NCBI GenBank assembly: GCA_030018355.1 | Contig: JASEFN010000003.1 | Span: 83,939-147,938, forward strand | Reading direction: 5' to 3' | DNA: 64,000 nucleotides | Origin: Caldisericia bacterium | Lineage (GTDB): Bacteria > Caldisericota > Caldisericia > B22-G15 | Shown: positions 2,557-64,000 of the stretch, piece after piece | Position numbering within the stretch: position 1 is the stretch's first letter | Layout: each line of letters begins with the position of its first letter | Notes under the pieces: generated by a model | What the model was told of the DNA's origin: nothing | The model's input: only the letters and a program-made list of their open reading frames with translations | Databases searched by the model: none | Translations under genes and position numbers: made by a program

Positions 2557-2589
2557 TATAAATTTAATTATAAAGAAAGGAGGAAAGAT

Positions 2590-4983
2590 ATGTATAAAAA
2601 AAGAAATGGATTTGCATTAATTACTGTGTTAATCATATCAACTATTCTATTTGGTGTAATAGGCTTCACTTTTATTGCTGCTAATAGAAATTTAAATTTA
2701 AAAACAATTCTTCATCTTTCAAAAACCTCTTTAACAACCGCTGATGCTGGACTTGAAGAGATCATAAGAGAGATTCAGAGTAGTCATTTTGATAACATAG
2801 GATTATATTTATTAACACAATATATAAAAGGTTTAGATTCAACACCAGCCCTTTATAATTACTATCCTGATTTCTTCAAAGATCCAAGAAATGGTAATTA
2901 CATTTTAACAAGAGCAAAATATTTTATGGATTTTGATTATTATACACTTGATAGCGTAGGTAATCCTGTTCCAATGAAAATTGTTAATTGGAACGATTCT
3001 AATTCAAATGGACTTGCAGATGAAGGTGAATATATTTCTAAAGTGGTTGTAGAACCAAATGAAATTAAAGTTGTGGAAAGTGTCACAAGATTTATAGAAA
3101 ATTTGGCAAGACCTCAAGATGATTCAAAAATAACTGAAATTACTAATGATATTCAAAATGCATATAACACATGGATGACATATCTATGGGGTCTAAACTG
3201 GAATGAGGGGTTTAAAACAACTGACACAGGCGTAAATCTTGGAAAAATGGAAGAGATGATAAGTAAAATTGGTGGTAATGATTTAGTTGCTGATTGTTCA
3301 GGAATTAATATAAATGATGTAGTTAAACCATATGATATTGATCATCCAGCAACAGGTGATACATATGAAGGAATTATTATTCAAACTGCTGGAAAAATTG
3401 ACAGTTCAACAAGTTCGCCACAAAGAGGTTTAATAATTATAACAGCAATTGGTTATTCATTTAGTTCACCAATTCCAAAAGTTGATTATGAAAATATAAT
3501 TAAACCAAGACTTACACTTGTATGTCCAAGACCAAGTGACCCCGAATATCCAGATCACTATTTAAATGTTCTTGATATCGATGCTATTAATAACTCTCTC
3601 AAACTTGCAGGTGTTAGATATAGAATTACTCCGATGAAAAGAGGAATTAGGGGTGAATTTGAAGTAAAATATGAGGCGCCACCAAATTCAATAATTCAAT
3701 TATTAAGAGAATCAGAGACAGTGCAAACAATATCATATCAAGACCAGGTTAGTTTTTCAGATTATCTTGTTGCATCAAATGACACAATAAATTTTGGATA
3801 TGATGAAGAAGTTCATGGTCCAATTAGAAGTAATGGCAACATAAACTTTTCTGGAGAAATTTGGGGCACAATAACTGCAAATGATTATGTTTGGGATTAT
3901 ATAACATTTGGTCCTTATGCAAATCAACATACAGGTGGCTTTCATTTTTATTATAATGGTACAGAATATAAAGTGGAACCTTTTAAAAATACAACCCAAA
4001 ATAATCCTTCGTATACTATTGCAAATATTTATCCTTCATTAGTTTATAATGGGGTGACATATACCACTGTGAAAATTGTTCAAGCACCAGACCAAAAGAC
4101 ATATTATGTAGATTTACCACCATTTAATTCACCATTAAACAATATCGGACCTGAAGATGTAAAGGTTTATTCACAATTACAACCTAATATGGATTTTTCA
4201 AGAGTTCAAACATCTGGAAATCAAATAAAAACAATTGCACAACAAACTGGTTATTATTTTAACGGAACAAGTACACCAGTTGAGTTGCATTTTCTTGAAA
4301 ATGGCACAATTCAAATAAAAGAGGGGAATGGACCAACAAGAATAATTCCAATGCCAACAAATTATCCTGTTACCCTTCCAGATGGAACAGTATATCAAGG
4401 AGGAGTTATTTATGTTCAAGGTGATGTTACTGTTAGAGGCAAAGTTAATGGAAGAGTAACTGTTTATGCATCGGATGATATATGGATAATGTCTGATTTA
4501 ACATATGTTCACCCTGCTGTTACAGATCCAAATCAAGTACCAAATTATATTCCTGATGCACTTGGTTTAATTGCTTATGATGATGTCTTTATACATAAAA
4601 ATGCTCCAGAACACTTAAGAATTGATGCAGCAGTTTTAGCACAAACTGGTTCTTTTGGGATAGATCCAAACGCTAATTGGCATCCATATAATCCAAATGG
4701 ACATGTTCTTGATTTTAGAGGTTCTCAAACTTTCTATTCATCAGATAATGCACCAGCGATTGTAAGTGGCAGTAGAGTGAAAGGATATGAAACTCAATTG
4801 ACTTATTATGATTATAACTTACAAAGAGCAAGACCACCCCTATTCCCAACTATTGGAGATGAAGTTATAACAAGAATAGCAATTACCAACACTCAAACAT
4901 ACGATGAAATAAATTTAGTTGGACCACTTAAATCAACACTTTTTGGTAGAATTCTCTGGCGTGAAATGGTAAACCCTCCATAA
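2590..4983 (+). CDS. Large (797 aa) pilin-like protein, a putative pilus-tip or adhesin minor pilin of the PilX/GspK-like class.
   Basis: NGFALITVLIISTILFGV pseudopilin-like N-terminus, then a long Asn/Thr/Tyr-rich extracellular-type domain. RBS AAGGAGG. Confidence 0.55.
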   Translation: MYKKRNGFALITVLIISTILFGVIGFTFIAANRNLNLKTILHLSKTSLTTADAGLEEIIREIQSSHFDNIGLYLLTQYIKGLDSTPALYNYYPDFFKDPRNGNYILTRAKYFMDFDYYTLDSVGNPVPMKIVNWNDSNSNGLADEGEYISKVVVEPNEIKVVESVTRFIENLARPQDDSKITEITNDIQNAYNTWMTYLWGLNWNEGFKTTDTGVNLGKMEEMISKIGGNDLVADCSGININDVVKPYDIDHPATGDTYEGIIIQTAGKIDSSTSSPQRGLIIITAIGYSFSSPIPKVDYENIIKPRLTLVCPRPSDPEYPDHYLNVLDIDAINNSLKLAGVRYRITPMKRGIRGEFEVKYEAPPNSIIQLLRESETVQTISYQDQVSFSDYLVASNDTINFGYDEEVHGPIRSNGNINFSGEIWGTITANDYVWDYITFGPYANQHTGGFHFYYNGTEYKVEPFKNTTQNNPSYTIANIYPSLVYNGVTYTTVKIVQAPDQKTYYVDLPPFNSPLNNIGPEDVKVYSQLQPNMDFSRVQTSGNQIKTIAQQTGYYFNGTSTPVELHFLENGTIQIKEGNGPTRIIPMPTNYPVTLPDGTVYQGGVIYVQGDVTVRGKVNGRVTVYASDDIWIMSDLTYVHPAVTDPNQVPNYIPDALGLIAYDDVFIHKNAPEHLRIDAAVLAQTGSFGIDPNANWHPYNPNGHVLDFRGSQTFYSSDNAPAIVSGSRVKGYETQLTYYDYNLQRARPPLFPTIGDEVITRIAITNTQTYDEINLVGPLKSTLFGRILWREMVNPP

Positions 4984-6419: not shown

Positions 6420-7082
6420 GTGTTTAAAAAATTTAATGGATTTACAATAATAGAACTTATTGTTGTTATTACAATTCTTTCGATAATTTCAATGGGTATA
6501 ATTTATCTTTCTCCAACTCTTATTGCTACTCAAAAATTAAGAAATGATGCATGGCAACTTGTTAATGATTTAAGAGAGGTTCAGGTAAGAGCAATGGCAC
6601 AACTTGAAAAGTTAAAAATCAATTTTTATGTTTATAATCCAAGTACACCAGAATTAAATAATATTTATGTATTTGAATTAAGAGAAGGTGCAATTCAAAA
6701 TGCATATAATGTGGGAAAAGATATTGTTTATATTATTAATCATCCAGGCGAGTTTCCAAATATTGTTGTAAGAAAATTTAGCAAAAATATAGGTTTTCCA
6801 TACTCATTTGGATATACTCAGGGAATTACAACAGACGATGGTTTAGGTAGTGCAAATTCTGTTGTTTTTGGAACTCAATCATCTCCAATCTCTTATTTTG
6901 TTTCATTTTCTTTCAATGAATGGGGAAATCCATCTCAAGGAGGTCATATAAATTTAATTTCTAATAATTTACTTGGAAAAACAAAAGATTCAAAAGGCAA
7001 CAGATTACCAAAAGTTATAACAATTTACATAACACCAGCAACTGGTCGCATAAGATTTGTTGGACCTCGTGATTGGAATTAA
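6420..7082 (+). CDS. Prepilin-type pilin (GTG start).
   Basis: NGFTIIELIVVITILS N-terminus. It resembles the protein encoded at 5031-5555, especially in the N-terminal segment (LRNDAWQLVNDLREVQ vs LKNNAWQVLNDIKEVQ). Confidence 0.7.
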   Translation: MFKKFNGFTIIELIVVITILSIISMGIIYLSPTLIATQKLRNDAWQLVNDLREVQVRAMAQLEKLKINFYVYNPSTPELNNIYVFELREGAIQNAYNVGKDIVYIINHPGEFPNIVVRKFSKNIGFPYSFGYTQGITTDDGLGSANSVVFGTQSSPISYFVSFSFNEWGNPSQGGHINLISNNLLGKTKDSKGNRLPKVITIYITPATGRIRFVGPRDWN

Positions 7083-7266: not shown

Positions 7267-7299
7267 ATGTTAAAATTGTGTCTGACACTTTTGTAACAT
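7267..7299. repeat. Palindromic repeat copy B.
   Basis: ATGTTAAAATTGTGTCTGACACTTTTGTAACAT. Confidence 0.75.
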
Positions 7300-7300
7300 G

Positions 7301-7333
7301 ATGTTAAAATCGTGTCTGACACTATTGTAACAT
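7301..7333. repeat. Palindromic repeat copy C, in tandem with copy B.
   Basis: ATGTTAAAATCGTGTCTGACACTATTGTAACAT. Confidence 0.75.
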
Positions 7334-7334
7334 G

Positions 7335-8141
7335 TTAGATTTCGAGATTGAGAGATTTTAATATAAATTTTATAACATCATCTGCTTTTCTTTCATCAGA
7401 AATAGAAATTAGATCTTGTTTAAGTTTTTTTAAATTTTCTCTAAATAGATTAAAATCTTGCATACCCTTTGGAATATGATATGTAAGATAATATAGACCC
7501 TTTGGCCCAATATTTTTATCTATATATTCGGAGAATTTTTCATAAAGGTAATTTGGTATATTTATTAATTTGTCTGATTTTTTAAGTAAACCAACTGAAA
7601 GGAGAGCATAAAGTATCTTTATAACTTTTGTTTCAGGCAAAATTGTATTTTTCATTGCATCTTCTATACTAATTGGATTCATAAATAGATACATTACATG
7701 CCACTCATCAGGAGAAAGTTCAATGTTGTTTTCAGGAGCATTTGGATTCATTTCAATTATTGTATATCTTGGAGGTATCTTTTTATAAAGATCTTTTGTC
7801 TCATCTGCAGTTCTTATTGCATCAATCATTAGAACATCAATTGATTTTGTAATTTTTTGAGGGGTATCAATTTCTTTTAATTTAAATGAAAAAGTCCCCT
7901 CATCTATTAAAAAAAGTGAATAAAATGCCTCTTCACCAGTTAAATTTCCACAAAATGCATCATAAACTTTTCCTTTTACAATATGAATTTCACCCTTTAT
8001 CTCCTCAACCCCTTTTTTACCTTGAATATATAATATACCAGTTTTTCCTGAATTAGAAAGAAGTGTTAAAACATCAACAATAGGAAAAGTTTCAATATTT
8101 CCCTCAATAGCCATTCTGATAACCTCCTTTTTAAATTTCAA
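7335..8141 (-). CDS. DUF4388-like domain protein, a possible signalling or receiver-like protein.
   Basis: N-terminal GNIETFPIVDVLTLLSNSGKTGILYI resembles the DUF4388 family. Weak call. Confidence 0.35.
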   Translation of the reverse strand: MKFKKEVIRMAIEGNIETFPIVDVLTLLSNSGKTGILYIQGKKGVEEIKGEIHIVKGKVYDAFCGNLTGEEAFYSLFLIDEGTFSFKLKEIDTPQKITKSIDVLMIDAIRTADETKDLYKKIPPRYTIIEMNPNAPENNIELSPDEWHVMYLFMNPISIEDAMKNTILPETKVIKILYALLSVGLLKKSDKLINIPNYLYEKFSEYIDKNIGPKGLYYLTYHIPKGMQDFNLFRENLKKLKQDLISISDERKADDVIKFILKSLNLEI

Positions 8142-12731: not shown

Positions 12732-13515
12732 ATTCACTGGTTAATCTTTTGTAGGTAAAGTACATTAAAGAAAATATAAAAACATCAAAAAGAAAAATAA
12801 TGAATAAACCCTGTATTAATGGTAAAATCTCCCATCCCTTGATTGTTAGAATTCTAATTGGATTTACTGCATAAGAGAGTGGATTTATTCTTGCAATTAC
12901 TTGTAACCACTTTGGCATCGCTTCAAGTGGAAATAGTGCTGTACTTGAAAAAGTTATTGGAAGAGTGAAAAAGTTAATTATTGTAAAAAATGTTTCAATT
13001 GTTTTTATTGTTGTTCCAATTATTAATGAAAATCCTGCAAAAATAAATGTAAAAAGCATACAAAATAAAATTATAACAATGACTCCTAAAATTCCTGTTG
13101 AAAATCTAACCCCAAAAATATACGCAATAAAGAGTATAATGCTACTTTGAAGAGCGGTTGCAATCATACTTGAGAGTGCTTTCCCAACAGGAATTGCAAC
13201 TCTATTAATTGGTGATGTTAAAAGTTTATCAAGATATCCAATTCTTCTATCCCAAATTATAGAACTTCCCCCAAAAATTCCACCAAAAAGAGAGGTCATA
13301 ATTACAATTCCAGGGGTCATAAATGAAAGATAGTTTGATGTCCCAAAAATTTGAGAAGCAAAAGGATTGTTTGTTAATCTACTCATTGTATTACCCATAA
13401 GACCTAACCAAATTAATGGTTGAAATATAGTTGCCAAGATTCTTGCTCTTTGTCTGAAGAATTTAATTAACTCTCTTTTACATATAGTAAATATATCTGA
13501 AATAAAGATACTCAT
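12730..13515 (-). CDS. ABC-2 type transporter permease.
   Basis: Six-TM hydrophobic profile. It is translationally coupled to the upstream ATPase. Confidence 0.7.
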   Translation of the reverse strand: MSIFISDIFTICKRELIKFFRQRARILATIFQPLIWLGLMGNTMSRLTNNPFASQIFGTSNYLSFMTPGIVIMTSLFGGIFGGSSIIWDRRIGYLDKLLTSPINRVAIPVGKALSSMIATALQSSIILFIAYIFGVRFSTGILGVIVIILFCMLFTFIFAGFSLIIGTTIKTIETFFTIINFFTLPITFSSTALFPLEAMPKWLQVIARINPLSYAVNPIRILTIKGWEILPLIQGLFIIFLFDVFIFSLMYFTYKRLTSE

Positions 13516-14525
13516 CTTCTAGCCCTCTTTATTGTAAGATTTCTTCTAAATACATCTTCTTTGCTTTCTTCACTTTCTCTGATTGTTTTACCCGTGAAAT
13601 GAAGATAAACATCATCAAGAGAGGGTCTTTTTGATCTAATTGAATCAATTTCTACTTGAAATTCTTGTGCAATTTTAAATATTTCAGGAATCAATCTATC
13701 ACCATTTTGATTAACAATTACTTGATATATACCATTTTGTAGAAGTTTTACATTTGATACACTTGATAGAGTTTTAATTCTATCAAGAAATAAATTTTTA
13801 TTATCACTCTCTTTTAAAGTAAATGTTATTATATCTCCTCCAATTATCTCTTTGAGTTTTCCTGGTTTGTCAATTGCTTTTATTTCACCCATATCAATAA
13901 TTGCAACTCTATCACAAAGTTCATCAGCCTCTTCCATATAATGAGTTGTTAAAAAAATTGTCATTCCAAAATCATATCTTAGTTTTCTTATATATTCCCA
14001 AATAGATACTCTTGTTTGAATATCAAGACCAAGAGTTGGTTCATCAAGAAAAAGAATTTTTGGTCTATGAATTAATGCAAGAGAAATATCTAACCTTTTT
14101 CTCATTCCTCCAGAATATGTTGAAACAAGATCAAATCTTCTATCCCAAAGGTTAAAAAGTGTAAGAAGATCTTTTCCTCTCTTTTCAATTTCTTTAATTG
14201 GAATATGATAAAGTTTTCCTTGAATATATAAATTTTCCCATCCAGTTAAATTGTCATCTACACTTGTTTCTTGAGATGCATAGCCAATTAAATTTCTTAC
14301 ACCATTAGGATTTTTTGATATATCAATTCCATCGACATAAACTTTTCCAGATGTTAATTTCAAAAGACCAATTATAACCTTTATTGTTGTTGTTTTTCCA
14401 GCACCATTTGGACCTAAAAAGCCAAAAATTTCACCCTTTTCTATTGAAAAAGAAATTCCTTTAACCGCTTCAACTCCGTTTGAATATATTTTTTTAAGAT
14501 TTTCAATTCTAATTATTTCTTCCAT
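13512..14525 (-). CDS. ABC transporter ATP-binding protein.
   Basis: Walker A GPNGAGKTT, signature YSGGMRKRL, Walker B ILFLDEPT. Confidence 0.88.
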   Translation of the reverse strand: MEEIIRIENLKKIYSNGVEAVKGISFSIEKGEIFGFLGPNGAGKTTTIKVIIGLLKLTSGKVYVDGIDISKNPNGVRNLIGYASQETSVDDNLTGWENLYIQGKLYHIPIKEIEKRGKDLLTLFNLWDRRFDLVSTYSGGMRKRLDISLALIHRPKILFLDEPTLGLDIQTRVSIWEYIRKLRYDFGMTIFLTTHYMEEADELCDRVAIIDMGEIKAIDKPGKLKEIIGGDIITFTLKESDNKNLFLDRIKTLSSVSNVKLLQNGIYQVIVNQNGDRLIPEIFKIAQEFQVEIDSIRSKRPSLDDVYLHFTGKTIRESEESKEDVFRRNLTIKRARR

Positions 14526-53841: not shown

Positions 53842-53930
53842 AAAACCTCCTTTTTAGTTTTTAATAATATAAACCAATAATATCAGAAAAAGTTTCAAAA
53901 TTGTATAAAATTATAAAAAGGAGGAAGAAG

Positions 53931-54503
53931 ATGGAAAAAGAATTAAAAGAGTACAATGGAATTAAACTTTCAAGTTTGAGTGAATTTAGAGAAAATTCAA
54001 TTAAAGGTCCACAGAGTGTGGATATTAAAAATTATACACTTGAAATTTATGAAGAAGGAATTTTTAAGAAAGCGTATAGATATGAAGAAGTAATAAACAA
54101 TTTTAAAGCGACAAAAAAGATAATAACGCTTTATTGTGTTGAAGGATGGGATACAACGATTTTATATGAGGGAATAAATCTTATTGATATATTAAATGAT
54201 TCAAATGTTTCTTTTAAGTATCCTGTGATAATTTTTGGTGCAGTAGATGGTTATACAACTTCACTTGAAACCTCTTTTGTTTTAAATAGCAAATTAATAA
54301 TTGCATACAAAATGAATGGGATAACTATACCAAAAGAAAACGGATTCCCATTTGTTTTAATTGGAGAGAATAAATGGGGGTATAAATGGATTAAGTGGTT
54401 AAATAGAATAGAATTATCTAATGATAAAGATTATAGAGGATATTGGGAATCGAGAGGTTATTCAAATTCAGCAAATCTTAATGAACCATTTTTTGAAAGA
54501 TAA
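53931..54503 (+). CDS. Molybdopterin-binding oxidoreductase-like domain protein (sulfite-oxidase/MsrP-fold fragment-sized).
   Basis: ITLYCVEGWDTTI resembles the Oxidored_molyb CVEGWS motif. Start placed at the MEKELKEY ATG preceded by AAAGGAGG. Confidence 0.45.
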   Translation: MEKELKEYNGIKLSSLSEFRENSIKGPQSVDIKNYTLEIYEEGIFKKAYRYEEVINNFKATKKIITLYCVEGWDTTILYEGINLIDILNDSNVSFKYPVIIFGAVDGYTTSLETSFVLNSKLIIAYKMNGITIPKENGFPFVLIGENKWGYKWIKWLNRIELSNDKDYRGYWESRGYSNSANLNEPFFER

Positions 54504-56810
54504 CCCTTTGAGTGATGTTTCAAAATTTTTTCTGGTATATTTATAACCCCATTCTTTACAAGATAAAAAATAAAAATATAAACTCTTTCTCCATTGCTTT
54601 TCTTTGCTTTCTTTACTTTTAATAACCCTACAATATTCCAAATGATAAACACCCTCCATACTATACACTTTCCAATAATTCACTTTTAACAGATATATGA
54701 CTTTCGTTCACACATTTTACATTACTAAAAACTTGTTCTATACAAATATTAGCTACTTAACAAATTTTTTTGTATTTTTGAGCCTTCTCTTTTGCTTTAA
54801 GCCTTTTAGAAGATTTAACTTTTTGCCATACAATGTCATTTGTATGCAAATTGGTTTAAAGCCAAGTTTCTCCAACTTTTCAAGTAATATACCTGACTGC
54901 TCATTTAAAAGTTTACCTTCATTATTGTGCTGATTTAAGTTTTACACCGAATATCCACAACCTGTTATCTTGTCGATAAACTAAAACAATCGGTTTGATA
55001 TTAACTTTTATCTCTTTCCCTTGTTTACTCCAAAAATAATATGTGATGTATTATACTATAAGCTTTCTATTAACTAAAACATAAGTATATAAGTATTTTT
55101 TATTTTTCTAAACCTATCCCTTTTTCTGTTAGATATTGGAATAGTCCATGTGGTCTTGCTTCTAAAAATAGTTGAATACAAAAAAATTATTCTTAATGAA
55201 GGAAATTTTAATTTCCTAATAGTTCCTTATCTCTACCAAAAAAGTTTTCTATAACTTGCTTGATGTGGTATTTTAAGAAACAAGAGAGTAATTATGTATT
55301 ATAGGAAGTTTTTTCTGCAGAATTCCTCTATAAGCTTAAATATTTGTTGTGCTTTTAAAGTTGAAAAATATGTATTTTGAATTTTTTTTATAATTTTTCA
55401 GAGTTATTATAATAACCAATATTTTGAAATTTTGTATAGATGCTATTTTCGAAGGTCAAGGATATTTTTGAAACACTTAAGTTTTAAGATTTACGCTGAG
55501 AAAGCCAATCCTTTTGGTCTGTGATGAAAGGTGGTATATATAATGAAAGTCTAATAATAAAGATCAAGTTTGGGTCTTAGATAAACTTCTAAAAACGGAC
55601 CACTTGTAGGTAATTGCCTATGAAACGGAAAATTTTATTGAAAGAGGAAAAGTTCATCTCTTAAGATGTTAGGGAAGTTACTTTATACATTAATAATATG
55701 CTCTTTTAATTTCAGTTAATAAAATTTTAAACATTATATAACCTCTTCTATTTTTTAAAAAAGATCAATTTCTTTGTTTTATTTGAATATTTTTTATAAA
55801 TGTTCAAGATTTGTAATTCTAAATATATAAAATCAGAATCGCTTTTAATTTTTGAAACACATATAAGACTTTCAAACTTAAAAATATCTATAATATTTTA
55901 TATATTTCTTTTAAGTTCGTTTTTTTATATTTGCTATTAAGATAACAGGATAACCTAATTTACGCTTTAACTATTTCTCCTTTCAAAGAACTGATTTTTC
56001 CTTTAAAGTAATTACCTTTAATATTTTTAACAATCAATGTAATTAATAAAAAATATTTGTCAATATTCTACGTAGTAATGTACTCACCTTTGAAAAAAGT
56101 AGAGAAAGTTTATGTTTTGCTTTTTTTAGAATTTTCTTTCAACTATTAAATAATTTTCCCATTTTTTATAACAAAATATACTTCTATCCTATTTCTAGTT
56201 CTTTTTCTGAAATAGTATTTATATAATTTGATGTTATTCTGTGAGAGTATTTGATTAAATATTATTTCACCTTTATCAGCTTCTAGAAAATAAAGTAAAC
56301 TTGCATTTTTTAAAAATAAAAAACTAGCCAATAAAAGTAATTAAAATTTTTTATTTTGTATTCTTTGAGTTCCTTTATCTGTTATATTGTAAGATTGTCA
56401 ATCTCTGTTTTTAATAAAAATTACTCTGTTATTACAAAAATTTGTAAACTTTACATTTCATATAGTTTATATAAAACTTGCACATTTCAAATCTTCACAG
56501 ATACTATTCAAACTTCTCGTAAAATAAAACTAAAAATTAACAAGATTCAAATACTACAATAAAATAAATTTTTTATTAAAAATAAAATTTCTAAATATTA
56601 ACACATACTTCAATTTTTACATCAATTTACCTGATAAAATGTCTTAATAAGGATAAATCATGATTTACCTATATAATTTTTCAATCATAAATAAATTATT
56701 AAAAAATTTTTGTAAAAATCTCTTTTCGTTAATTTTGGAAATGTAATAAGAAATATAAATCCATTTTGAAAAACTTAACAAACTACTGTACTATTGACAC
56801 ATTTTTACCC

Positions 56811-57671
56811 CTAAATCTTAAATATTCCATATCCTAACGATGTTTTCGCTCCAATACCAAACTTTTCTAATGCTTCCTTTAATAACACTTCTGACTTTTG
56901 GAGTAAAGAATTGTCCTGTGAAATTAAATAGAATCGAAAAGTTGTTTTCTCAACAGTCAAAAATTCTACAGGTTTTGGATTTTGCCAATCTGCCGGAGGT
57001 TGCTTTCCAGAATAATAATCAGGATAATGGGGGTTCATTATATCAATCTTCAAATTTATATCACTTACCGGATAAGCATCTATAAAATATACCTTCCCTT
57101 GATGCTTTTGAGTGCCGAAGATTTTAATCAACTCTCCAAATTTTATATTACCAATTTCCAAATCCAACTCGTTTCCTTTTTCAAGATCACTCGAAATTTG
57201 CTCCACAGCATCTTCAAAACTTTTATTATCTTTATTCATCTTCTGTTCTGCAAACTTCAACACCGCCCAATGCTTTGTTACTCCTTTGACCGCACTTCCC
57301 GGAATATACGGAATCCCATAAATATGATGCAAAGTCATCGATGTTTCCTGGGGATGTACTCCTCCAAGCCCAATTATAAGATGCCAAGGACATATGCTTT
57401 GAAAATTCTTAACATTAAAACCATTATTTTTTAAAAGATTAATCAAATTTTCTCTTCTCTTCTGAATGTTTTCTAAAAAATTTCTTTCCCATTTGAATTT
57501 CTCAATTTCCTTATTAATCACTATCCTTTCAGGCAAGATCTCCCCAAGAACAATTGGTGAGTTAAATAGAAAATAAAAATTATTATCAGGTCCAATGCTT
57601 TGAGCTGAAAGTATACTAAAGGTATCTCGAGGAAAATACTTATTTTTTGATACATGAAACCTAATACTCAT
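56811..57671 (-). CDS. cmr6: Type III-B CRISPR RAMP protein Cmr6.
   Basis: GLGGVHPQETSMTLHHIYGIPYIPGSAVKG, the Cmr6 G-rich loop / PYIPGSS(L/V)KG signature. Confidence 0.85.
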   Translation of the reverse strand: MSIRFHVSKNKYFPRDTFSILSAQSIGPDNNFYFLFNSPIVLGEILPERIVINKEIEKFKWERNFLENIQKRRENLINLLKNNGFNVKNFQSICPWHLIIGLGGVHPQETSMTLHHIYGIPYIPGSAVKGVTKHWAVLKFAEQKMNKDNKSFEDAVEQISSDLEKGNELDLEIGNIKFGELIKIFGTQKHQGKVYFIDAYPVSDINLKIDIMNPHYPDYYSGKQPPADWQNPKPVEFLTVEKTTFRFYLISQDNSLLQKSEVLLKEALEKFGIGAKTSLGYGIFKI

Positions 57672-58096
57672 TCTTCACTCTCCTCCTCTGTTTCAATCAA
57701 ACCCTCTGCAAACCTCTTCACCCAATTTAAAAATGCAAGTATCTCCTCTGTGACATATCGATAATTTTGAGAATCAAGCGAAATAACCCATTCTACTAAC
57801 TCAATGTTATCTGGCATCTTTATTCTTGCTGTTGAATCACTTCTAAGATAATCCATCATTTGCGAATATAAAAGTTCATAAGCATTTCCATTTTTTGCTT
57901 TCGACTTAACAAATGCAAGGGTTTGCCCAAGTCCATTGGAAAGAATCATCTGAGGAATTTTTCTTGAGTAAGCACGGTAATTCTTGAGTAATTCTTTATT
58001 AGAAGAATTTTCATCAACCACTTCCTTTACACACCTATACGCAAACTCTGCTCTCCCCTTTTCAAGTTTTGTAATTAAACTCTCTCTATCAGGCAT
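57668..58096 (-). CDS. cmr5: Type III-B small subunit Cmr5.
   Basis: 142 aa and alpha-helical, positioned between cmr4 and cmr6. Confidence 0.7.
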   Translation of the reverse strand: MPDRESLITKLEKGRAEFAYRCVKEVVDENSSNKELLKNYRAYSRKIPQMILSNGLGQTLAFVKSKAKNGNAYELLYSQMMDYLRSDSTARIKMPDNIELVEWVISLDSQNYRYVTEEILAFLNWVKRFAEGLIETEEESEE

Positions 58097-58118
58097 AACT
58101 AACCTCCTTTGTTAATTT

Positions 58119-59105
58119 TCAAAGGATTTTTAACCTTACAAAACCCTTTCCAATTGTTTGATTGCCCCCTATCTGAACTATCTCTGGAAGCCCATCTTTA
58201 AAAAACTTAGCAACAAGTTCTGCCTCTTCCTGTGGAGTAACAGATTTAAATATCCCTTTTTGCTCATCACTTTTTACTTTTGGCTCTGTAAACATCACGA
58301 GAGAATATAAGATTGTATCTTGAGGCAAATATTCTTCTGTCCATAGCGCCCCTGACGCAACAGTGCCAGTTTTATCGTCAATTCTCGTCCTCGTAATTAC
58401 CTCAGTAGAGGTCTTTACAAATTGCTTAAAATCATCATCACTTAAAATAACAAGATCACTTTTTAACTTCTCCCTCCAATAGTTATAAGCATTATCACTA
58501 GGGAAAATTCGATTTGCGAACCATTCAGCAATTCCAGAGGTTATATCATTTTCGTTTACTTCAAAAGTGAATTCTTCAAGTATAATTTTTGACTCAATTG
58601 CAAGATTTGATTGTCTTGGTGTAGTGTTTTGAAGTGTGTAAAAGTTTCCAAAATTGCTAGAGTTTATACCAGCCATCTTGATTTCCTTACTAAATCTTTC
58701 AAGAACCATCGGACAAGTTATCCAAGCAAAAATACCCTTCAACGATTTAACAGGAAATAAAAGAATTCTCGCATCCGTAAAAGTAATAGCGCTTGCATGC
58801 TCATCACTATCTTCTGGTCCAAAAACAAGTGATAAATAGTCTTTGTTAAGTTCTGTTTCAGCATTGTCTTTAATGTATTTTATTTTGTCTTTGGGTCTAA
58901 TTTTTTTAGCATTTAATTCAATTTCTTTATTCGCAATTCCAAACGCCTCTTTTATACAGCCCTTTAGTCCTGAAGCTTCAATCTTGGGAAAATCCGTATG
59001 CCTTTCCCTTTGAATGGGAAGATCCACAAGCCCCAATTCACTCCCACTTCCAGCATGAACAGGAGTTTCTGCAATTATGAACAATGACTGTACTTTTTTA
59101 AACAT
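58119..59105 (-). CDS. cmr4: Type III-B backbone RAMP Cmr4.
   Basis: N-terminal FIIAETPVHAGSGSELGLVDLPIQRE, the Cmr4 (Cas7-group) signature with the catalytic Asp region. Confidence 0.85.
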   Translation of the reverse strand: MFKKVQSLFIIAETPVHAGSGSELGLVDLPIQRERHTDFPKIEASGLKGCIKEAFGIANKEIELNAKKIRPKDKIKYIKDNAETELNKDYLSLVFGPEDSDEHASAITFTDARILLFPVKSLKGIFAWITCPMVLERFSKEIKMAGINSSNFGNFYTLQNTTPRQSNLAIESKIILEEFTFEVNENDITSGIAEWFANRIFPSDNAYNYWREKLKSDLVILSDDDFKQFVKTSTEVITRTRIDDKTGTVASGALWTEEYLPQDTILYSLVMFTEPKVKSDEQKGIFKSVTPQEEAELVAKFFKDGLPEIVQIGGNQTIGKGFVRLKIL

Positions 59106-60306
59106 GCCATCCCTCCTTTTGTATTTTATAAACTTTGTAGTTTTCTAAATCTTTTATCTTCGACAAGTTATTTTTAAAAGTTTCAACATACTCACTTTCA
59201 ACATTATGCACATCACTTCCTATGCTAATCGCTCCAGCATAAATATCATACTCCATGACACCATACCGAGTTTTTCTTTCCTTTACTTTATATAAAATCC
59301 TTACCTGTAAATTATTCTCCTTATGTTTAAAACATTTAAAGTCTTGTAAATCCACACCTTCCAATCTATGGTCTAAATCAGGATCCTGTAGGTTTTGCTC
59401 TATTCTTCGCTTAAGCTCTAATAAAGATTTTTCCGCTATGTTCTTAAAATTTTGGTCCTTGCCAATATACTCTTTAAATAATTTAGATACATAAAAAACT
59501 CTAAACCCTCGCTTATACTTTTCCCATAAAACTATCCCCAAGTTGTTTAGAGAATATAAGTTTTCAACCCTTTCCACTAGACTTAAAATATCTGCATAGT
59601 CTTCCTCATTAATACCCTTCAGTTCACTAACCCCATCCTTTTCCAATTTAGCAAAAAACTCTTCATATTCTTCGAATATCTCCCATTTAATATCTAATGG
59701 AATGTAAGGTATCTTTATTAAAGCATCAGTTTTTTCAAATATATAATAAACAGGACATTTATTCACCTGAGCAAGGATCGTAAGATACGGAATGGTCGCC
59801 TTGTATCCCCCAGTGATGTTAATAATCACATTATCCCAGTATTCATCCGCAATCCTATAAATCTCATTTATCAATTCACTCATACCAACATTAAACTCTT
59901 CTCTATCCTGAACCTGCAAACACTTAATAAATCTTGTGTAAATTTTTTTACTATCAAACCCTAAATCCTGAAGAATTTCTTCTATTAACTGACTCGCAAG
60001 CTTACTTAAAATTGTATCAGAATACAGAAGATAAACTTCAAAATCATCATCCCTTAACTCCTCTTTTAACTTTAAAAGGCTTTTCACTTCCGCCGATAGA
60101 GTCACTTTATTCTCATCTTTTCTTGAGTCAATCCATTCTTTAATTGCATCTCTAAGAGATTGAATCCTCCTCTTTTCTGAATCAAATTCCTCTGCCTTCT
60201 TTTCCTGTAGATCTTCAAAGTAACCTCTAGAAGTGTTATTTCTCTTTTCTTCCTCAAAATAATTCTCAAATATCGATGTCCCAACCATCGTAATTACCTT
60301 CTTCAT
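59098..60306 (-). CDS. CARF-domain protein embedded in the cmr operon, in the Csx1 positional slot, with an unrecognised C-terminal effector domain.
   Basis: The N-terminal beta-strand/loop VITMVGTSIFEN and the NITGGYKATIPYL motif fit the CARF family's [DN]-[IL]-T-[HG]-G-[FY]-[RK]. The C-terminal ~200 aa lacks any R-x4-6-H HEPN motif. Confidence 0.6.
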   Translation of the reverse strand: MKKVITMVGTSIFENYFEEEKRNNTSRGYFEDLQEKKAEEFDSEKRRIQSLRDAIKEWIDSRKDENKVTLSAEVKSLLKLKEELRDDDFEVYLLYSDTILSKLASQLIEEILQDLGFDSKKIYTRFIKCLQVQDREEFNVGMSELINEIYRIADEYWDNVIINITGGYKATIPYLTILAQVNKCPVYYIFEKTDALIKIPYIPLDIKWEIFEEYEEFFAKLEKDGVSELKGINEEDYADILSLVERVENLYSLNNLGIVLWEKYKRGFRVFYVSKLFKEYIGKDQNFKNIAEKSLLELKRRIEQNLQDPDLDHRLEGVDLQDFKCFKHKENNLQVRILYKVKERKTRYGVMEYDIYAGAISIGSDVHNVESEYVETFKNNLSKIKDLENYKVYKIQKEGWHV

Positions 60307-61406
60307 GATACACTCCCAATAAATGTTAAACCATAACCTTCCTCTGGATATATGTCCGAAATATTCTTAAAATGAAAAACATCCTTAACCTTTTGAACAT
60401 CAGAATCATCAAGTATCTGAAAATAATATACACTCCCCGCAGGAACTGCCCTTCGCATAGGTTTTGGCTTATTTTCCGCCATATCCCATCCTCCAATCAA
60501 TTTATATTTCCCAATTACGCAACCAACCAACTTCAATTTAATACCCTTATGCTCTCCTTGAAGCGTATTTTCATCAATCCAACTTGGAAGATAACCCTTT
60601 TCAAAAATTGCCGGTGTAGCAAGATAAATCTTAAATAACCTGTTGTTAAAACTTAAACTTATACCCTTAATCTCTTGAAGTAAATCACTTTCCATTTTTT
60701 CTATCTTCGCAGTTTTCCCTTCTCCGCCAAGCTGAATTATACCCGATTCAGGAACGTCTTCAACCCCCTCAATCCACACAGCAATCGCCACATCACCTTT
60801 CAATTTTTCATCTTTCAACCTTATCATTGGCACATGATAAAGATGCCCCTTTACTGTGGTTTTTGTTATACGGTTTCTTGCAATTCCAATCTTCGACTCC
60901 ACAATGTAAAGCTCATCTTTCTCTGTTAGTCTTAAACCTTTCTTCCCTAATAAATAATCACTCAAATAAATAGCAGTAATATAACCTTCAGCTTCTTTTA
61001 TATGCTCCATACCTTTCCAAACCAAAATCCCATCCATTTGATAATCTGAAATAAATATGTCAGGCCTCTCAGAAAAAGTTAAAGACTTTAAAATATCATT
61101 TCTCTTGTTTTCTTTCTTCTTCAGTAAATCCAACGGCGAAGGAAATAATAATTCCCCTTTTAACAGAATTGAACCTTTAATTTTTAGGGAGCCTTTTGTT
61201 TCAGTCGTTCCTAATTCTTCTTTGAACCTCCCTTCTTTGAAATCTTTCAAACTTCCCTTTTCAAATATTAGCCATGTCCTTATCGCACCATACAATGTTG
61301 TAGGATTTGGTGGAAAAATTATCTCTGTCCAAGACTCCGCACCCATTGTGAAAGGTATTCCACTTCTGAAAAATAAAGTATCATTTGGTATAATCTTATA
61401 CCACAT
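60303..61406 (-). CDS. cmr3: Type III-B Cmr3.
   Basis: N-terminal IIPNDTLFFRSGIPF matches the Cmr3 DxLFFRxGRPF motif. 367 aa. Confidence 0.85.
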   Translation of the reverse strand: MWYKIIPNDTLFFRSGIPFTMGAESWTEIIFPPNPTTLYGAIRTWLIFEKGSLKDFKEGRFKEELGTTETKGSLKIKGSILLKGELLFPSPLDLLKKKENKRNDILKSLTFSERPDIFISDYQMDGILVWKGMEHIKEAEGYITAIYLSDYLLGKKGLRLTEKDELYIVESKIGIARNRITKTTVKGHLYHVPMIRLKDEKLKGDVAIAVWIEGVEDVPESGIIQLGGEGKTAKIEKMESDLLQEIKGISLSFNNRLFKIYLATPAIFEKGYLPSWIDENTLQGEHKGIKLKLVGCVIGKYKLIGGWDMAENKPKPMRRAVPAGSVYYFQILDDSDVQKVKDVFHFKNISDIYPEEGYGLTFIGSVS

Positions 61407-61407
61407 A

Positions 61408-63978
61408 CTACTCTCTCTTATTTAAAAAACTCACAATTTCAAGTAAGTTGGTAAAGTTGTCTAAATCTCCACCAGATTTCCAGAAAAGCTTTTGAATATT
61501 TGTGTAAAAGTCATCAATAAGCTCTTTTCTCTTATTTTTCTCATCCTTTCCGCTTCCTTTATAATTGTAAGCACGAGAAATCAATCTATAAAGTTCACCA
61601 TTGAATACATCCTCAGATGACACCAAGCGCCCATCCTTGTCCTTTAATCTCAAAAATTCCCTTTTTAACTTCTGGATAAATCCATGAGAAATATGCCTTT
61701 CATTCTCATCATCCATTGCATTCTTCGCCCTTTTTATCACATCAATAGTTTGTAGCACATCATTGGTTGTGCTATCCTTGTATATCCACTTGTACATTAC
61801 TATCCTTTCTTCTCCTGACTTCTTTATCAGAAGAATTGAAAAGGAATCTTTACTTGTATTTGATTTCACCATCTTCTCCATCTGGAAAACTTTACCTATC
61901 ACCATTTTTAATGGCTCCTTATAATGTGCAATTACAACCCCCATAGATGCAGTTGCCTTTTTCCCCATCGTAAGGTAATAAACTCCATCTTTTTCCACAA
62001 AACCCGTTTGATTTTCTCCAGATACTTTTATTTGGCCATCTTCAACTCTTGTCTCTCCAGAAAAAGCAAACCTTAACTTCTCCATAACATCAAGTAAATC
62101 TCTTAAATTAACAAAAGCTAACACATCATCTCCGCCAGTATATATGAGTTTCCCAAGATGCTCCTCCTCAACAATTTTCTTCACAAACTCTATGGAGTAA
62201 TTCCTTAAAGCATTTGAAATAGAAGCATGTATTGCTGGCGTTAAAAGCTTCTTTGAAGATTTAACCTTTAACTGCTCCTTAAAATCTTCCGGTAACTTTC
62301 TCCACACCTCAGAATTATAAGTGTTCTCAATCTTCGGAAGAAGCTCACCCGAAAGCCACTTCCCCATGTTGTCTCCATCAAGATAAATTAAAGCATAATA
62401 AGGATTTGGCTTTCCTACTTTTTCAGATAATTGTTTAAGACATTCTTTAATTTGCTTTATCTGCTCATCAGTTAAATCAACATCGAATTCTTCTTTTATT
62501 GACTCCTTTTCTAAATTCTCCTCAAAAAACAATTCACCTTCCACAGTTTTCTGTATTACATCCTTCAACTTTGGTATAGAAGATACAATAGAAAGTTTAC
62601 TGCTCAGTGAATTTTTAAGTAAGTTTTCATATTCTTCAAACTTTTCTCTAGCTTCCTTCAACGCTTTCTTCTTAAAATCTGCTACGGTAACTTCTGCTGT
62701 TGATGGAAATGTCAAATCTTCAAAGCTTCTATCAACTTTTTCTTCAAGATAAAGTTTAAATGTTCTTTTAATGAAGCATAACCCACATAAGCCTTCACCG
62801 CTAGAAAAATACTTATGTTCTACCCTATCAGTTAAATCTATTGCTTCTGGATTGTATTTTGTAAATTTTTTCTTATTCTCTTTTTCCCAGAAAAATAAAA
62901 CATTTCTCTCCCCACAGAGAGAACATTTACGTCCCGTTTCCTCAACTTGCTTAAATTTTCTTAAATTTTTTCTTGCACCCATCCATTTCTCAAGCACAGT
63001 ATAAAGAAGCTGATAAAGTAGACCAATATTTGGAGAATATTCTTCTTTATTCTTTGCAAAATTCCAAAGCTCCTTCCATGCTTTTAATTCACCATCATAG
63101 AAGAAATTTTTAAAGTCATCAACCTCTATATCAGCCTCGCCTTTTCTCCACGGAACTGCAACCCAGTATACCTGTGGAAAATCCACAAGCTGTTTCACTA
63201 TCGCATCTTTTATTTCTTCTGCCTTTAAACTTAACTTTTGCAAAATTACATCCAGAATATTTGATAACTCCTCAAAAATTTTCTCTTTCGCTCTCTCAGC
63301 CAATTGTTTAATTTTTTCTGTCTCAGATTCAGGAATTATCGCAACGAATCTATTTGGGATTGTTGGAATACTAACAAAATCTGAATTTGATTTCTCGACT
63401 CGAATTCCTTTCTCCCTCTCAAGAAACCAATCCATAAGAGGTTGATTGAAAAGATCTGGGTATATAATCGATGTCGGACCATACTCGTTTATTATCACCT
63501 TCATCCCAATGAAGGTTAAATACGAAAGAAGAAAACTCCCAATATAAAGATCTTGTGCTTTCCTTGCCTGTGAAATAAAAGATTGAACAGGACCAATAGT
63601 GAAAAGAAATAACGAATTATTTTGAATTAATTTATCATCATACAAGTATGCATTAACTGCAGATGAAACCTTCAAATGTTCCCATATTGAGTGATCTGGT
63701 ACCCTCGTATCCGCCGGGAAAAGTGGTATATACTTGCACCATGGTCTATTACGGGATCTCTCAATAAGTTTTATAAGTAAATTTCTCCAGATATAAAGAA
63801 ATTTGCGTTCATCATCGTAACTGCTTATTTCTCTTCCAATCTCTTTAAAAACCTCACTAACAACCGAGAAAACCTCAGATGAATTAATATTCGAAATATC
63901 CATCTTCCCCTCACTTAAAGGATGCCTGATTTCATTAAAATCCTGTGAAATCCCAGCTGGAAGCAAACTTCGCTCCAT
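61408..63978 (-). CDS. cmr2: Cas10/Cmr2 large subunit (HD nuclease + Palm/cyclase).
   Basis: HD motif ADTRVPDHSIWEH near the N-terminus. Treble-clef Cys cluster CSLCGERN...CGLC. GGDD cyclase motif IYTGGDDVLAF. An alternative start ATG lies about 25 codons downstream of the track start. The gene lies 22 nt from the window edge. Confidence 0.9.
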   Translation of the reverse strand: MERSLLPAGISQDFNEIRHPLSEGKMDISNINSSEVFSVVSEVFKEIGREISSYDDERKFLYIWRNLLIKLIERSRNRPWCKYIPLFPADTRVPDHSIWEHLKVSSAVNAYLYDDKLIQNNSLFLFTIGPVQSFISQARKAQDLYIGSFLLSYLTFIGMKVIINEYGPTSIIYPDLFNQPLMDWFLEREKGIRVEKSNSDFVSIPTIPNRFVAIIPESETEKIKQLAERAKEKIFEELSNILDVILQKLSLKAEEIKDAIVKQLVDFPQVYWVAVPWRKGEADIEVDDFKNFFYDGELKAWKELWNFAKNKEEYSPNIGLLYQLLYTVLEKWMGARKNLRKFKQVEETGRKCSLCGERNVLFFWEKENKKKFTKYNPEAIDLTDRVEHKYFSSGEGLCGLCFIKRTFKLYLEEKVDRSFEDLTFPSTAEVTVADFKKKALKEAREKFEEYENLLKNSLSSKLSIVSSIPKLKDVIQKTVEGELFFEENLEKESIKEEFDVDLTDEQIKQIKECLKQLSEKVGKPNPYYALIYLDGDNMGKWLSGELLPKIENTYNSEVWRKLPEDFKEQLKVKSSKKLLTPAIHASISNALRNYSIEFVKKIVEEEHLGKLIYTGGDDVLAFVNLRDLLDVMEKLRFAFSGETRVEDGQIKVSGENQTGFVEKDGVYYLTMGKKATASMGVVIAHYKEPLKMVIGKVFQMEKMVKSNTSKDSFSILLIKKSGEERIVMYKWIYKDSTTNDVLQTIDVIKRAKNAMDDENERHISHGFIQKLKREFLRLKDKDGRLVSSEDVFNGELYRLISRAYNYKGSGKDEKNKRKELIDDFYTNIQKLFWKSGGDLDNFTNLLEIVSFLNKRE

Positions 63979-64000
63979 ACATGATGCGATGATATCAGGC

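Follow-up and report, generated by a model that had tools for sequence, protein, structure and literature searches.

The gene-free stretch that lies past the 3' end of the cmr operon in this genome (positions 54504-56810 of the window, that is, of the whole 64,000-nt stretch of Caldisericia DNA analysed here) is not native intergenic DNA but the tail of a horizontally acquired island of 11.2 kb, and it contains a CRISPR repeat, present as a single copy that shares the orientation of the cmr genes and lies 333 nt past the stop codon of cmr6. The reading that we consider the most probable is that this tail comprises a leader and an array that collapsed to a single repeat, followed by inert DNA, at the end of an acquired cmr island. 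The features on which the argument is built are listed below.

53901-54503, plus strand: Mo-domain gene, whose stop codon is the left limit of the gene-free stretch
54501-54511, no strand assigned: left copy of the 11-bp direct duplication TAACCCTTTGA, containing the TAA stop codon of the Mo-domain gene
54512-56448, no strand assigned: 1937 nt of non-coding DNA in the island tail, with a GC content that falls from about 26% at the left to about 20% at the right, and with no gene, pseudogene, array or structured RNA detectable
56449-56477, minus strand (the cmr strand): solitary CRISPR repeat, 5'-GTTTTATATAAACTATATGAAATGTAAAG-3', identified by Rfam, a phage-repeat match and simulations
56478-56810, minus strand: leader-like AT-rich spacer of 333 nt, about 18-20% GC, from the cmr6 stop codon to the repeat, assigned by position and composition
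56811-64000 (window end), minus strand: type III-B cmr operon, the coding part of the island, assigned by Pfam families on the called genes
56811-57671, minus strand: cmr6 (Pfam/NCBIfam)
57668-58096, minus strand: cmr5 (Pfam/NCBIfam)
58119-59105, minus strand: cmr4 (Pfam/NCBIfam)
59098-60306, minus strand: CARF/Csx1-like gene, matching a CRISPR-associated domain model
60303-61406, minus strand: cmr3 (Pfam/NCBIfam)
From 61408 past the window end, minus strand: cas10/cmr2, with a GGDD motif in Cas10
Beyond the window end: cmr1
Equivalent of 65729-65739, outside the window (L001 1943-1933), no strand assigned: right copy of TAACCCTTTGA, at the far junction of the island

An acquired cmr island

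The island consists of the gene-free stretch and the whole cmr operon, and it lies between the Mo-domain gene and the rplY promoter. The corresponding site is empty in three sets of Caldisericia relatives (L038-L044), with Mo-domain proteins that share 84%, 81% and 67% identity with the present one: there, the Mo gene is followed after about 70 nt by rplY-pth-mfd, with nothing between, while in the present genome rplY-pth-mfd is found on the far side of the cmr operon. Moreover, TAACCCTTTGA is present at both junctions of the island and occurs only once inside the window, and the relatives carry a single TAACCTTTGACAAAT site that leads directly into the rplY promoter. The empty site in relatives, the flanking direct repeats and the deviant GC content (34.1% in the cmr genes, compared with 28.6% in host coding DNA) are features of a genomic island; an integrase or transposase of its own, or terminal inverted repeats, would be a further feature, which the island does not have. 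No integrase, transposase or remnant of either was found in the island tail using HMM libraries, the protein search and the called genes, and there are no terminal inverted repeats, since the alignment score between the island ends equals that of shuffled controls. The initial annotation had suggested a decayed mobile-element remnant, and this holds insofar as the whole stretch belongs to an inserted 11.2-kb island with 11-bp direct repeats, but not as regards its content, given that no integrase, transposase or other pseudogene is detectable. Overall, a discrete insertion of 11 kb in the region of the rplY promoter has provided an uncultured Caldisericia lineage with a complete type III-B effector module.

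All seven genes of the cmr operon are intact, and the scores of the six Cmr proteins exceed the curated cut-offs of NCBIfam. Neither the island nor the 68 kb covered by the analysis contains cas1, cas2 or cas6, and the island also lacks spacers. The nearest Cmr6 homologue is only 63% identical, no relatives of the island above about 62% protein identity were found in the collections searched, and the Mo-domain gene has no close relative among the GTDB representatives. The known other copies of the locus are 100% identical to it, and the next Cmr6 relatives (at most 62-63% identical) have different downstream regions. In related cmr loci, cmr6 is followed either by an array, as in L007, or by type I-B cas genes with cas6b. 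L007, whose Cmr6 is 62% identical, has a leader of about 155 nt and an array of 19 repeats at the corresponding place downstream of cmr.

The solitary CRISPR repeat

The Rfam model CRISPR-DR14 aligns with the repeat from end to end, with 41.3 bits and E=0.003 for the region, a score just below the gathering score of 45. Besides, the repeat is identical at 26/29 positions to the array repeat of the Clostridioides phage phiCDKH02, compared with a maximum of 23/29 in 3000 simulations of the region. It belongs to the type I-B/III-associated class 'GTTTTATAT...ATGTAAA', and its processing by Cas6 would be predicted to leave the 8-nt 5' tag AUGUAAAG (56456-56449). No ORF with coding signal overlaps it. 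The repeat is thus a full-length, significant match to a known repeat family, located in intergenic DNA and with no partial repeat in its 100-nt flanks, where local alignment gave scores of 11 and 13, below the 95th percentile of the null distribution (14). [quoted passage not shown] (2019); the flank criterion, no partial repeat within 100 nt, is that of SRUFinder (PMC10651486).

No second copy with three or fewer mismatches exists elsewhere in the window, the best matches in ungapped and gapped scans for degenerate copies equal the background, and no second repeat-like sequence occurs within hundreds of nucleotides. A CRISPR array in the stretch was rejected because the repeat is present in a single copy, with no degenerate copies and no periodicity at lags of 10-200. 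In agreement with the earlier statement that the region has no periodic repeat-spacer structure, its autocorrelation showed no peak at lags 10 to 200, and repeat finding and TRF returned no array, and each repeat family had at most two copies. Two pairs of short exact repeats had also been reported and both exist, as repeats of 13 and 10 nt (ATTTTTGAAACAC at 55464 and 55848, CTATAAGCTT at 55056 and 55328), yet they are at chance level, since an exact repeat of at least 13 nt occurs in 65% of Markov-simulated sequences of the same size and composition. Consequently, the proposal of a degraded array with its leader can be retained for the 362 nt nearest to cmr, with an intact repeat 333 nt past cmr6 on the same strand, and has to be abandoned for the other 1.94 kb, which shows neither eroded repeats nor periodicity.

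The exact repeat had no matches in 185,579 representative genomes and 2.9 million viral contigs, and neither the exact repeat nor its 27-nt core was matched in 241 million metagenome records. Over this region the window does not differ from three metagenome contigs, each obtained from an independent sample, and the lone repeat is thus not an artefact of assembly. The initial annotation had overlooked both the bona fide CRISPR repeat at 56449-56477 and the fact that the stretch is part of an inserted island.

The gene-free DNA beyond the repeat

Measured from stop codon to stop codon of the flanking genes, the gene-free stretch covers 2307 nt with a GC content of 23.2% (left half, 26.5%; right half, 20.1%). 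Its longest start-to-stop ORF encodes 78 aa (54697-54933, plus strand) and its longest stop-free run is 84 codons, while the window outside it is 94.5% coding and the next largest internal gap is 347 nt long and contains a tRNA. These values confirm what had been described from first inspection, namely an AT-rich region of about 2.3 kb between a Mo-domain gene and cmr, devoid of ORFs above about 80 codons in a window that is elsewhere close to 95% coding. The claim that no ribosome-binding site is paired with a start also stands in essence, the single case among all ORFs of at least 25 aa in the stretch being an AGGA upstream of a 28-codon ORF (56660-56746, plus strand). With respect to small proteins, no ORF in the stretch has both a ribosome-binding site and a coding signal. 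Codon-usage log-odds are negative in all frames, the best 60-codon window reaching 0.19 against a gene mean of 0.50, and about 350 stop codons are distributed across the six frames. An alternative genetic code was rejected, as recoding of TGA or TAG yields no long ORFs. An inert stretch of 1.9 kb is unusual for a genome with 94.5% coding DNA.

Similarity searches for intact or remnant genes, which had been called for at the outset, found none in four HMM libraries or 5.8 billion proteins. In the six-frame hmmscan of stop-masked translations against Pfam, PADLOC, NCBIfam and PHROGs, only the Cmr6 tail used as a control matched, and the six-frame query against 5.8 billion proteins gave zero matches at E<=10; as a positive control of the method, the 27-residue C-terminal tail of Cmr6 was recovered at E=5e-6. 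Searches of the stretch by tblastn with proteins of related loci (Csx1b, Cas8b, Cas7, Cas5, Cas6b, Cas1, Cas2, Cas4, Cas6 and others) gave noise, with a best E of 0.07. A pseudogene tract was rejected, because no frameshift-tolerant protein similarity to known genes was found while the Cmr6-tail control was detected.

At the nucleotide level, the Rfam scan that had likewise been recommended returned the CRISPR-DR14 repeat alone at E<=5 and no structured RNA family. Folding z-scores reached at best -2.75 among 116 windows, with a mean of -0.05 and a value of -0.96 around the repeat. A structured non-coding RNA was rejected, as there is no Rfam family besides the CRISPR repeat and folding is close to that of shuffled controls; the earlier suggestion of a locus producing non-coding RNAs thus finds no positive evidence in Rfam or in the folding z-scores. 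No DNA similar to the stretch was found in the plasmid collection, the phage collection matched the repeat only, and comparison with the other fetched loci gave AT-rich noise only. A replication origin was also considered and rejected: two DnaA-box-like 9-mers (54951-54979, one mismatch each) are present with no iterons, and this pair is within chance because the window contains 36 such sites. The remaining 1.94 kb of the tail would then be donor-derived DNA with no detectable function. For annotation purposes, the region should be described as DNA of an island that bears a solitary CRISPR repeat, and not as a candidate gene or non-coding RNA locus.

Interpretation and comparison with known systems

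The following course of events would account for these observations. The island has entered at a site that separates the Mo-domain gene from the rplY promoter, and the 11-bp direct duplication bounds it there. The 333 nt past cmr6 form a CRISPR-leader-like segment, which is followed by one full-length repeat, and this lone repeat is probably the remnant of an array acquired together with the cmr module. Its identical repeats would have recombined with one another, so that the array collapsed to one repeat and all spacers were deleted. As the island has intact cmr genes but no spacers, cas6, cas1 or cas2, the crRNAs for Cmr are probably supplied in trans, and the Cmr complex would load them from a compatible array, with a Cas6, encoded elsewhere in the genome. 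The lone repeat itself is most likely transcribed by read-through from cmr6 and would yield at most a harmless crRNA-like fragment.

Two other explanations retain a role for the repeat, and we regard each of them as unlikely. The leader and single repeat might constitute a live array with zero spacers, a functional minimal locus awaiting spacers from a Cas1-Cas2 encoded elsewhere. A leader with one repeat is sufficient as an acceptor for spacer integration in type I adaptation assays, and the present locus combines intact cmr genes with a full-length repeat that departs little from the family consensus and that has a long AT-rich, leader-like segment immediately ahead of it, on the side and strand where a leader belongs. 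However, cas1, cas2 and cas6 are missing from the island and from the 68 kb seen, the exact repeat is absent from every array in the collections searched, and four sequences of the locus from different samples have zero spacers and no polymorphism, which suggests that there is no ongoing acquisition. Alternatively, and with a similarly low probability, the repeat could act as a solitary RNA that is transcribed and then bound or processed by Cas6 or Cmr, serving as a crRNA-like guide of fixed sequence, composed of the 8-nt tag and the invariant flank downstream, that regulates a target, or else as a decoy or buffer of the Cas6 and Cmr proteins, or as an inhibitor resembling RNA anti-CRISPRs (Racrs) on a mobile island. 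Regulatory standalone repeats and mini-arrays are widespread in CRISPR-cas loci (PMC10120712; bioRxiv 10.1101/2023.03.10.532045), and solitary repeat units on mobile elements are known as RNA anti-CRISPRs (PMC10651486); besides, the repeat is intact amid featureless surroundings, and no terminator-like site lies between it and cmr6, so that it is probably transcribed. Nevertheless, there is no second (psi) repeat, which indicates that the lone repeat is not a mini-array, and the flanks of the repeat (37-45 nt on each side) show no complementarity above the AT-rich background within the island, the promoter region in the 530 nt ahead of cmr1 included, the best matches being 24-25/37 or AT-only 10-13-mers. 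Promoter-like sites occur at chance frequency only, no acr-like or phage genes were found nearby (no PHROG matches in the region), and the regulatory mini-arrays of a published survey (PMC10120712) belonged mainly to type I and V-A systems.

It is still more doubtful that the tail, chiefly its left half (54512-55600), consists of island genes eroded beyond recognition, such as an integrase or transposase, a second csx1, or cas6, cas1 or cas2. The left half has a coding-like GC content of 26.5% and a GC skew of -0.29 to -0.36, as in the neighbouring minus-strand genes; directly past cmr6, related cmr loci carry type I-B or adaptation genes as well as another CARF gene; and the island has flanking direct repeats but no recombinase, which would imply that its mobility functions were lost. 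These indications are countered by the lack of any match to the HMM libraries or the protein collection, even at E<=10, by the tblastn noise obtained with neighbouring proteins of related loci, and by the negative codon-usage log-odds and numerous stop codons in all frames. A different possibility, to which we assign very little weight, is that the lone repeat is not a relic but has a role within a mobile type III-B module that has no array. Read-through from cmr6 and cleavage by Cas6 would in that case generate a single hard-wired crRNA-like RNA, with the AUGUAAAG tag and an invariant downstream flank, and this RNA would occupy or regulate Cmr complexes or titrate the host Cas6. If the repeat were a working part, the 1.9-kb tail might carry cis-acting sequences needed by an island that moves without a recognisable recombinase; and if the tail were old decayed DNA, a near-consensus repeat beside it would hint at selection on the repeat. 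Under the reading that we favour, collapse of the array to a single repeat, the CRISPR locus of the cmr module either had no spacers on arrival or has lost them since.

The arrangement is not a new kind of element, but a common and already described one. The closest counterpart with a canonical organization is L007, which has the same order of genes, with a CARF gene likewise located between cmr3 and cmr4, and its repeats on the same side and strand behind an AT-rich leader. It differs in carrying 19 repeats of the family GTTTGACCTCATCAAAAAGGGATTGCGAC, against one repeat and zero spacers here, and the featureless 1.9-kb tail beyond the repeat is found in the present locus, unlike L007. Relatives also have a second CARF gene past cmr6, which the present locus lacks. 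As in islands and integrative elements flanked by short direct repeats, there is a precise presence/absence site, an 11-bp duplication, a deviant GC content and defence cargo, whereas the present island differs in having no integrase, transposase or terminal inverted repeats and in that its target is not a tRNA gene.

Two known types of regulatory or inhibitory RNA do not fit the repeat. A regulatory mini-array (CreR, CreA or crlRNA) was rejected, as there is no second repeat and complementarity of the flanks within the island, including the region upstream of cmr1, equals the background. Racrs (Camara-Wilpert et al., 2023; PMC10651486) are carried by phages or plasmids, immediately behind a promoter and at a distance from cas genes, frequently with acr genes close by. 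They share with the present element a solitary repeat mimic on horizontally acquired DNA, but here the repeat lies directly behind the cas operon, the promoter signal is at chance and there are no phage or acr genes nearby; for these reasons an RNA anti-CRISPR was not accepted.

A closer agreement is observed with the standalone repeat-like sequences present, at least one per locus, in 42% of III-B loci (PMC10120712, Table 1; Shmakov et al., 2023). Such standalone repeats and SRUs have in common with the present repeat a single full-length match to a repeat family, an intergenic position beside cas effector genes and no partial repeat within 100 nt. The published elements differ in that they were selected for conservation across close loci and many of them form mini-arrays with an identifiable target, while the present repeat has no second repeat and no target was found. 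Additionally, the array-less III-B system of Marinomonas mediterranea, which uses I-F crRNAs (PMC5576922), likewise combines an intact effector operon without spacers or cas6 of its own with signs of horizontal acquisition, although for the present locus the use of crRNAs in trans is only inferred. Altogether, the island provides one more natural array-less type III-B module beside a standalone repeat, and such loci bear on how type III systems borrow crRNAs and on how arrays are lost.

Insertion of the island between the Mo-domain gene and rplY

The gene-free region (54504-56810) is bordered by the stop codons of the molybdopterin-oxidoreductase-domain (Mo-domain) gene and of cmr6, and the transcription units on either side converge on it. 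The features considered here are listed below; L001 is the sequence of the same locus, whose numbering reaches past the window end.

Features of the window and the island
601-688 (+): c-di-GMP-II riboswitch preceding the 738-1238 ORF; its 42.6 bits narrowly exceed the gathering score
10751-10931 (-): glmS ribozyme upstream of the 8919-10778 gene, 91 bits
18260-18333 (+): tRNA-Gln
53901-54503 (+): Mo-domain gene, left border of the region
54501-54511: left copy of the 11-bp duplication TAACCCTTTGA
56811-57671 (-): cmr6, right border of the region
59098-60306 (-): CARF/Csx1-like gene (PF09651) between cmr3 and cmr4
65729-65739 (window equivalent; L001 1933-1943): right copy of TAACCCTTTGA

The ribozyme, the riboswitch and the tRNA are ordinary and serve as annotation anchors. 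Additionally, a perfect-looking 34-nt tandem repeat (7267-7334; two copies of ATGTTAAAATCGTGTCTGACACTATTGTAACATG, 94% matches, including the palindrome GTGTCTGACAC) sits in a 252-nt, 36%-GC gap between the convergent genes 6420-7082 (+) and 7335-8141 (-) and could be a protein-binding site or a terminator.

The gene-free region is as the initial annotation described it. ORFs reach at most 78 aa from start to stop and stop-free runs at most 84 codons, in agreement with the reported limit of about 80 codons, and long ORFs cover 94.5% of the window outside the region (about 95% had been stated), where the next largest internal gap has 347 nt and holds a tRNA. The region is indeed AT-rich, with a GC content of 23.2% (26.5% in the left half and 20.1% in the right) compared to 28.6% for host genes, 26.7% for other intergenic DNA and 34.1% for the cmr genes. 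A codon-usage log-odds scan trained on the genes of the window gave a negative mean in all six frames, and the best 60-codon window scored 0.19 against a gene mean of 0.50. Both short exact repeats mentioned earlier are present, an exact 13-nt repeat arising in 65% of composition-matched simulations, and the absence of a periodic repeat-spacer structure was reproduced (no autocorrelation peak at lags 10-200), with no tandem arrays or repeat families of more than two copies in the region. The claimed lack of RBS-ATG pairing also essentially held, since among ORFs of at least 25 aa AGGA occurs at RBS distance for one 28-codon ORF only, and the genuine genes of the window typically have GGAGG. 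This sole RBS-like ORF (MIYLYNFSIINKLLKNFCKNLFSLILEM; 56660-56746 (+)), whose AGGA is 6 nt upstream, runs antisense to cmr within the leader-like segment and has neither a homologue nor a coding signal. Public gene callers annotate a 63-64-aa ORF at 54468-54659 (-) (L001 13013-13204), which overlaps the 3' end of the Mo-domain gene and crosses the island junction; as it spans two DNAs of different origin and has no Pfam hit, it is almost certainly spurious.

The Caldisericia relatives (Mo-domain protein identity of 84% in L038, 81% in L039 and L040, and 67% in L041-L044) share with the window the upstream synteny (DUF5671 gene, methyltransferase, TGT and ABC transporter), and in them the Mo-domain gene is followed by about 70 nt and then rplY (L25), pth and mfd, the junction (...GAAAGATAACCTTTGACAAATT...) leading from the Mo stop codon straight into the TTGACA of the rplY promoter. 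Here, in an uncultured Caldisericia bacterium, rplY-pth-mfd is displaced to the far side of the cmr operon, and the left (...GAAAGA-TAACCCTTTGA-GTGATG...) and right (...TATACT-TAACCCTTTGA-CAAATT...) copies of the duplication bracket 11,217 nt, from 54512 to the equivalent of 65728. The island is an insertion; besides seven cmr genes it holds the 2.3-kb tail and, upstream of cmr1, an AT-rich stretch of 530 nt. The higher GC content of the cmr genes and the lack of Cmr6 homologues with identity between 63% and 100% fit horizontal acquisition; neither terminal inverted repeats nor a recombinase gene were found in the island. The insertion point falls exactly between the Mo stop codon and the -35 TTGACA of the rplY promoter, a box rebuilt by the right copy of the duplication, so rplY-pth-mfd probably keep their own promoter.

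A solitary CRISPR repeat downstream of cmr6

The operon contains intact cmr1, cas10 (with the GGDD motif), cmr3, cmr4, cmr5 and cmr6, all above curated cut-offs, and its CARF/Csx1-like gene matches a CRISPR-associated domain model. The minus-strand orientation of the operon places the region downstream of cmr. A permissive Rfam scan, a check proposed in the initial annotation, returned for the region a single hit and no other family: CRISPR-DR14 is matched from end to end at 56449-56477, with 41.3 bits against a gathering score of 45 (E=0.003). On the minus strand this element reads GTTTTATATAAACTATATGAAATGTAAAG, starting with GTTT and ending with AAAG, as usual for type I-B/III-associated repeats. 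It was also the sole matching element when a phage collection was searched with the whole region, the counterpart being a five-repeat CRISPR array of Clostridioides phage phiCDKH02 (repeat GTTTTATATTAACTATATGGAATGTAAAT), with 26/29 positions identical; when the region was simulated 3000 times with a first-order Markov model, the best match to the phage repeat was at most 23/29. The repeat is real. The three positions at which it departs from the Clostridioides repeat (T>A, G>A and T>G) are compatible with drift, a cross-phylum comparison that proves nothing, and the degenerate terminal repeat at the far end of the phiCDKH02 array, in the orientation of the solitary repeat, fixes the direction of transcription.

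No second copy with up to 3 mismatches exists in the 64 kb, degenerate matches reach at best 19-21/29, which is the window background, gapped alignment gave no match at array-like spacing, and both 100-nt flanks, compared with the repeat, scored inside the null distribution. Searches for the exact repeat in 185,579 representative genomes and 2.9 million viral contigs gave no hit, and 241 million metagenome records contained neither the exact repeat nor its 27-nt core. At the sequence level the element qualifies as a solitary repeat, and not as a CRISPR array (no further copy), a regulatory mini-array (no second repeat and no target) or a Racr (RNA anti-CRISPR; wrong context).

The repeat lies on the cmr strand, 333 nt past the cmr6 stop codon, and the segment between the two has the highest AT content of the region (18-20% GC). 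In cmr loci with Cmr6 about 62% identical, a second CARF gene follows cmr6. Past this gene, the locus L007 has an array of 19 repeats on the same strand, preceded by a leader of about 155 nt; in the locus L004 the gene is followed by a type I-B module (cas6b-cas1-cas2-cas4), and the contig ends in a leader-like tail. Given this layout, the solitary repeat stands where a leader and first array repeat are expected. The second CARF/Csx1-like gene, directly after cmr6 in the relatives, is missing here; the PF09651 gene between cmr3 and cmr4 occurs throughout this cmr clade (L004 7375-8502, L007 7440-8630 and, in a further cmr locus, L046 2832-4037). The composite III-B/I-B locus L004 also carries toxin-antitoxin-like pairs embedded in its cas operons, namely a fusion of Cmr1 with a nucleotidyltransferase (MNT) domain, with a HEPN gene after it (1777-3490), and a second MNT-HEPN pair between cas8b and cas7 (13082-13715).

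Directly 3' of the repeat in the cmr direction, about 40 nt (56403-56442) form a 21-nt tandem duplication (CTCTGTTATTAACAAAAATTA twice, 85% matches, TRF score 59), whose near-palindromic start is complementary at 17/20 positions to the leader segment 56699-56718; both properties are probably low-complexity chance. Directly 5', the leader end (56478-56495, TTTGAAATGTGCAA) resembles the repeat's own 3' end (TATGAAATGTAAAG), which could be a repeat-recombination scar or chance, the likeness being not above the null for the flanks.

Three fetched metagenome contigs from independent samples, two of them from JGI metagenomes and one from a Logan assembly, have the same sequence as the window across the region, the only differences in one of them being a scaffold gap elsewhere. 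Assemblers usually break at arrays rather than shortcut them, and the assemblies of L004 and L005, another fetched locus, are broken at arrays. The single-repeat genotype is therefore treated as real for the dominant population, at the assembly level.

Origin of the repeat and content of the remaining tail

Every content test of the remaining 1.94 kb of the tail (54512-56448) was negative. Stop-masked six-frame translations had no match inside the region in Pfam, PADLOC, NCBIfam or PHROGs, and these queries recovered the 27-residue C-terminal tail of Cmr6 as a positive control (E=5e-6), so short fragments are detectable. The concatenated six-frame query against 5.8 billion proteins gave 2936 word-sharing candidates and none at E<=10, tblastn queries with the products of the genes that adjoin cmr6 in related loci reached a best E=0.07, and TGA or TAG recoding opened no long ORFs. 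Moreover, Rfam gave no further match in this part, the z-scores of sliding 120-nt folds, 116 windows in all, had -2.75 as their best value and -0.05 as their mean, and blastn against the plasmid collection, the phage collection and all fetched loci returned the solitary repeat or AT-rich noise only. A DnaA-box-like 9-mer pair (54951-54979) was at chance level.

The repeat and its leader are probably the remnant of an array that belonged to the module and was lost when its repeats recombined. The Cmr complex probably receives its crRNAs from elsewhere, through a compatible array and Cas6, and such a supply has been documented in another III-B system (PMC5576922). What is left of the tail appears to be inert donor DNA. 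No terminator-like site was found after cmr6, so the repeat is probably transcribed by read-through from cmr6. Processing by a cognate Cas6, if there is one, would release a fragment that begins at 56456 with the tag AUGUAAAG and that type III trimming could turn into a crRNA-like species.

A solitary-repeat RNA with a function of its own could arise by this route; no target for such a guide was found in the 68 kb covered, and this explanation seems improbable. It is mildly odd that a compact genome keeps about 2 kb of apparently functionless DNA beside a near-consensus repeat, and for this reason a small probability stays on a functional reading. A live array with zero spacers would account for the leader-like segment and intact repeat, and is also unlikely, as the island, which has one repeat and no spacers, lacks cas6, cas1 and cas2. 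Fully decayed genes, of which the homology searches gave no trace, we consider doubtful to about the same degree. These three explanations keep their small share because there is no related island copy in which conservation could be tested.

Comparison with other type III-B loci

Overall, the gene-free region is real and now largely explained, with the array remnant as the preferred origin of its repeat. Of type III-B loci, 42% have been described as carrying standalone repeat-like sequences and 12% as carrying mini-arrays (PMC10120712, Table 1), and solitary repeat units can serve as RNA anti-CRISPRs when mobile elements carry them (PMC10651486). Array-less III-B modules with a standalone repeat are a known situation, of which this locus is a new example, here on an inserted island and in a poorly sampled phylum.
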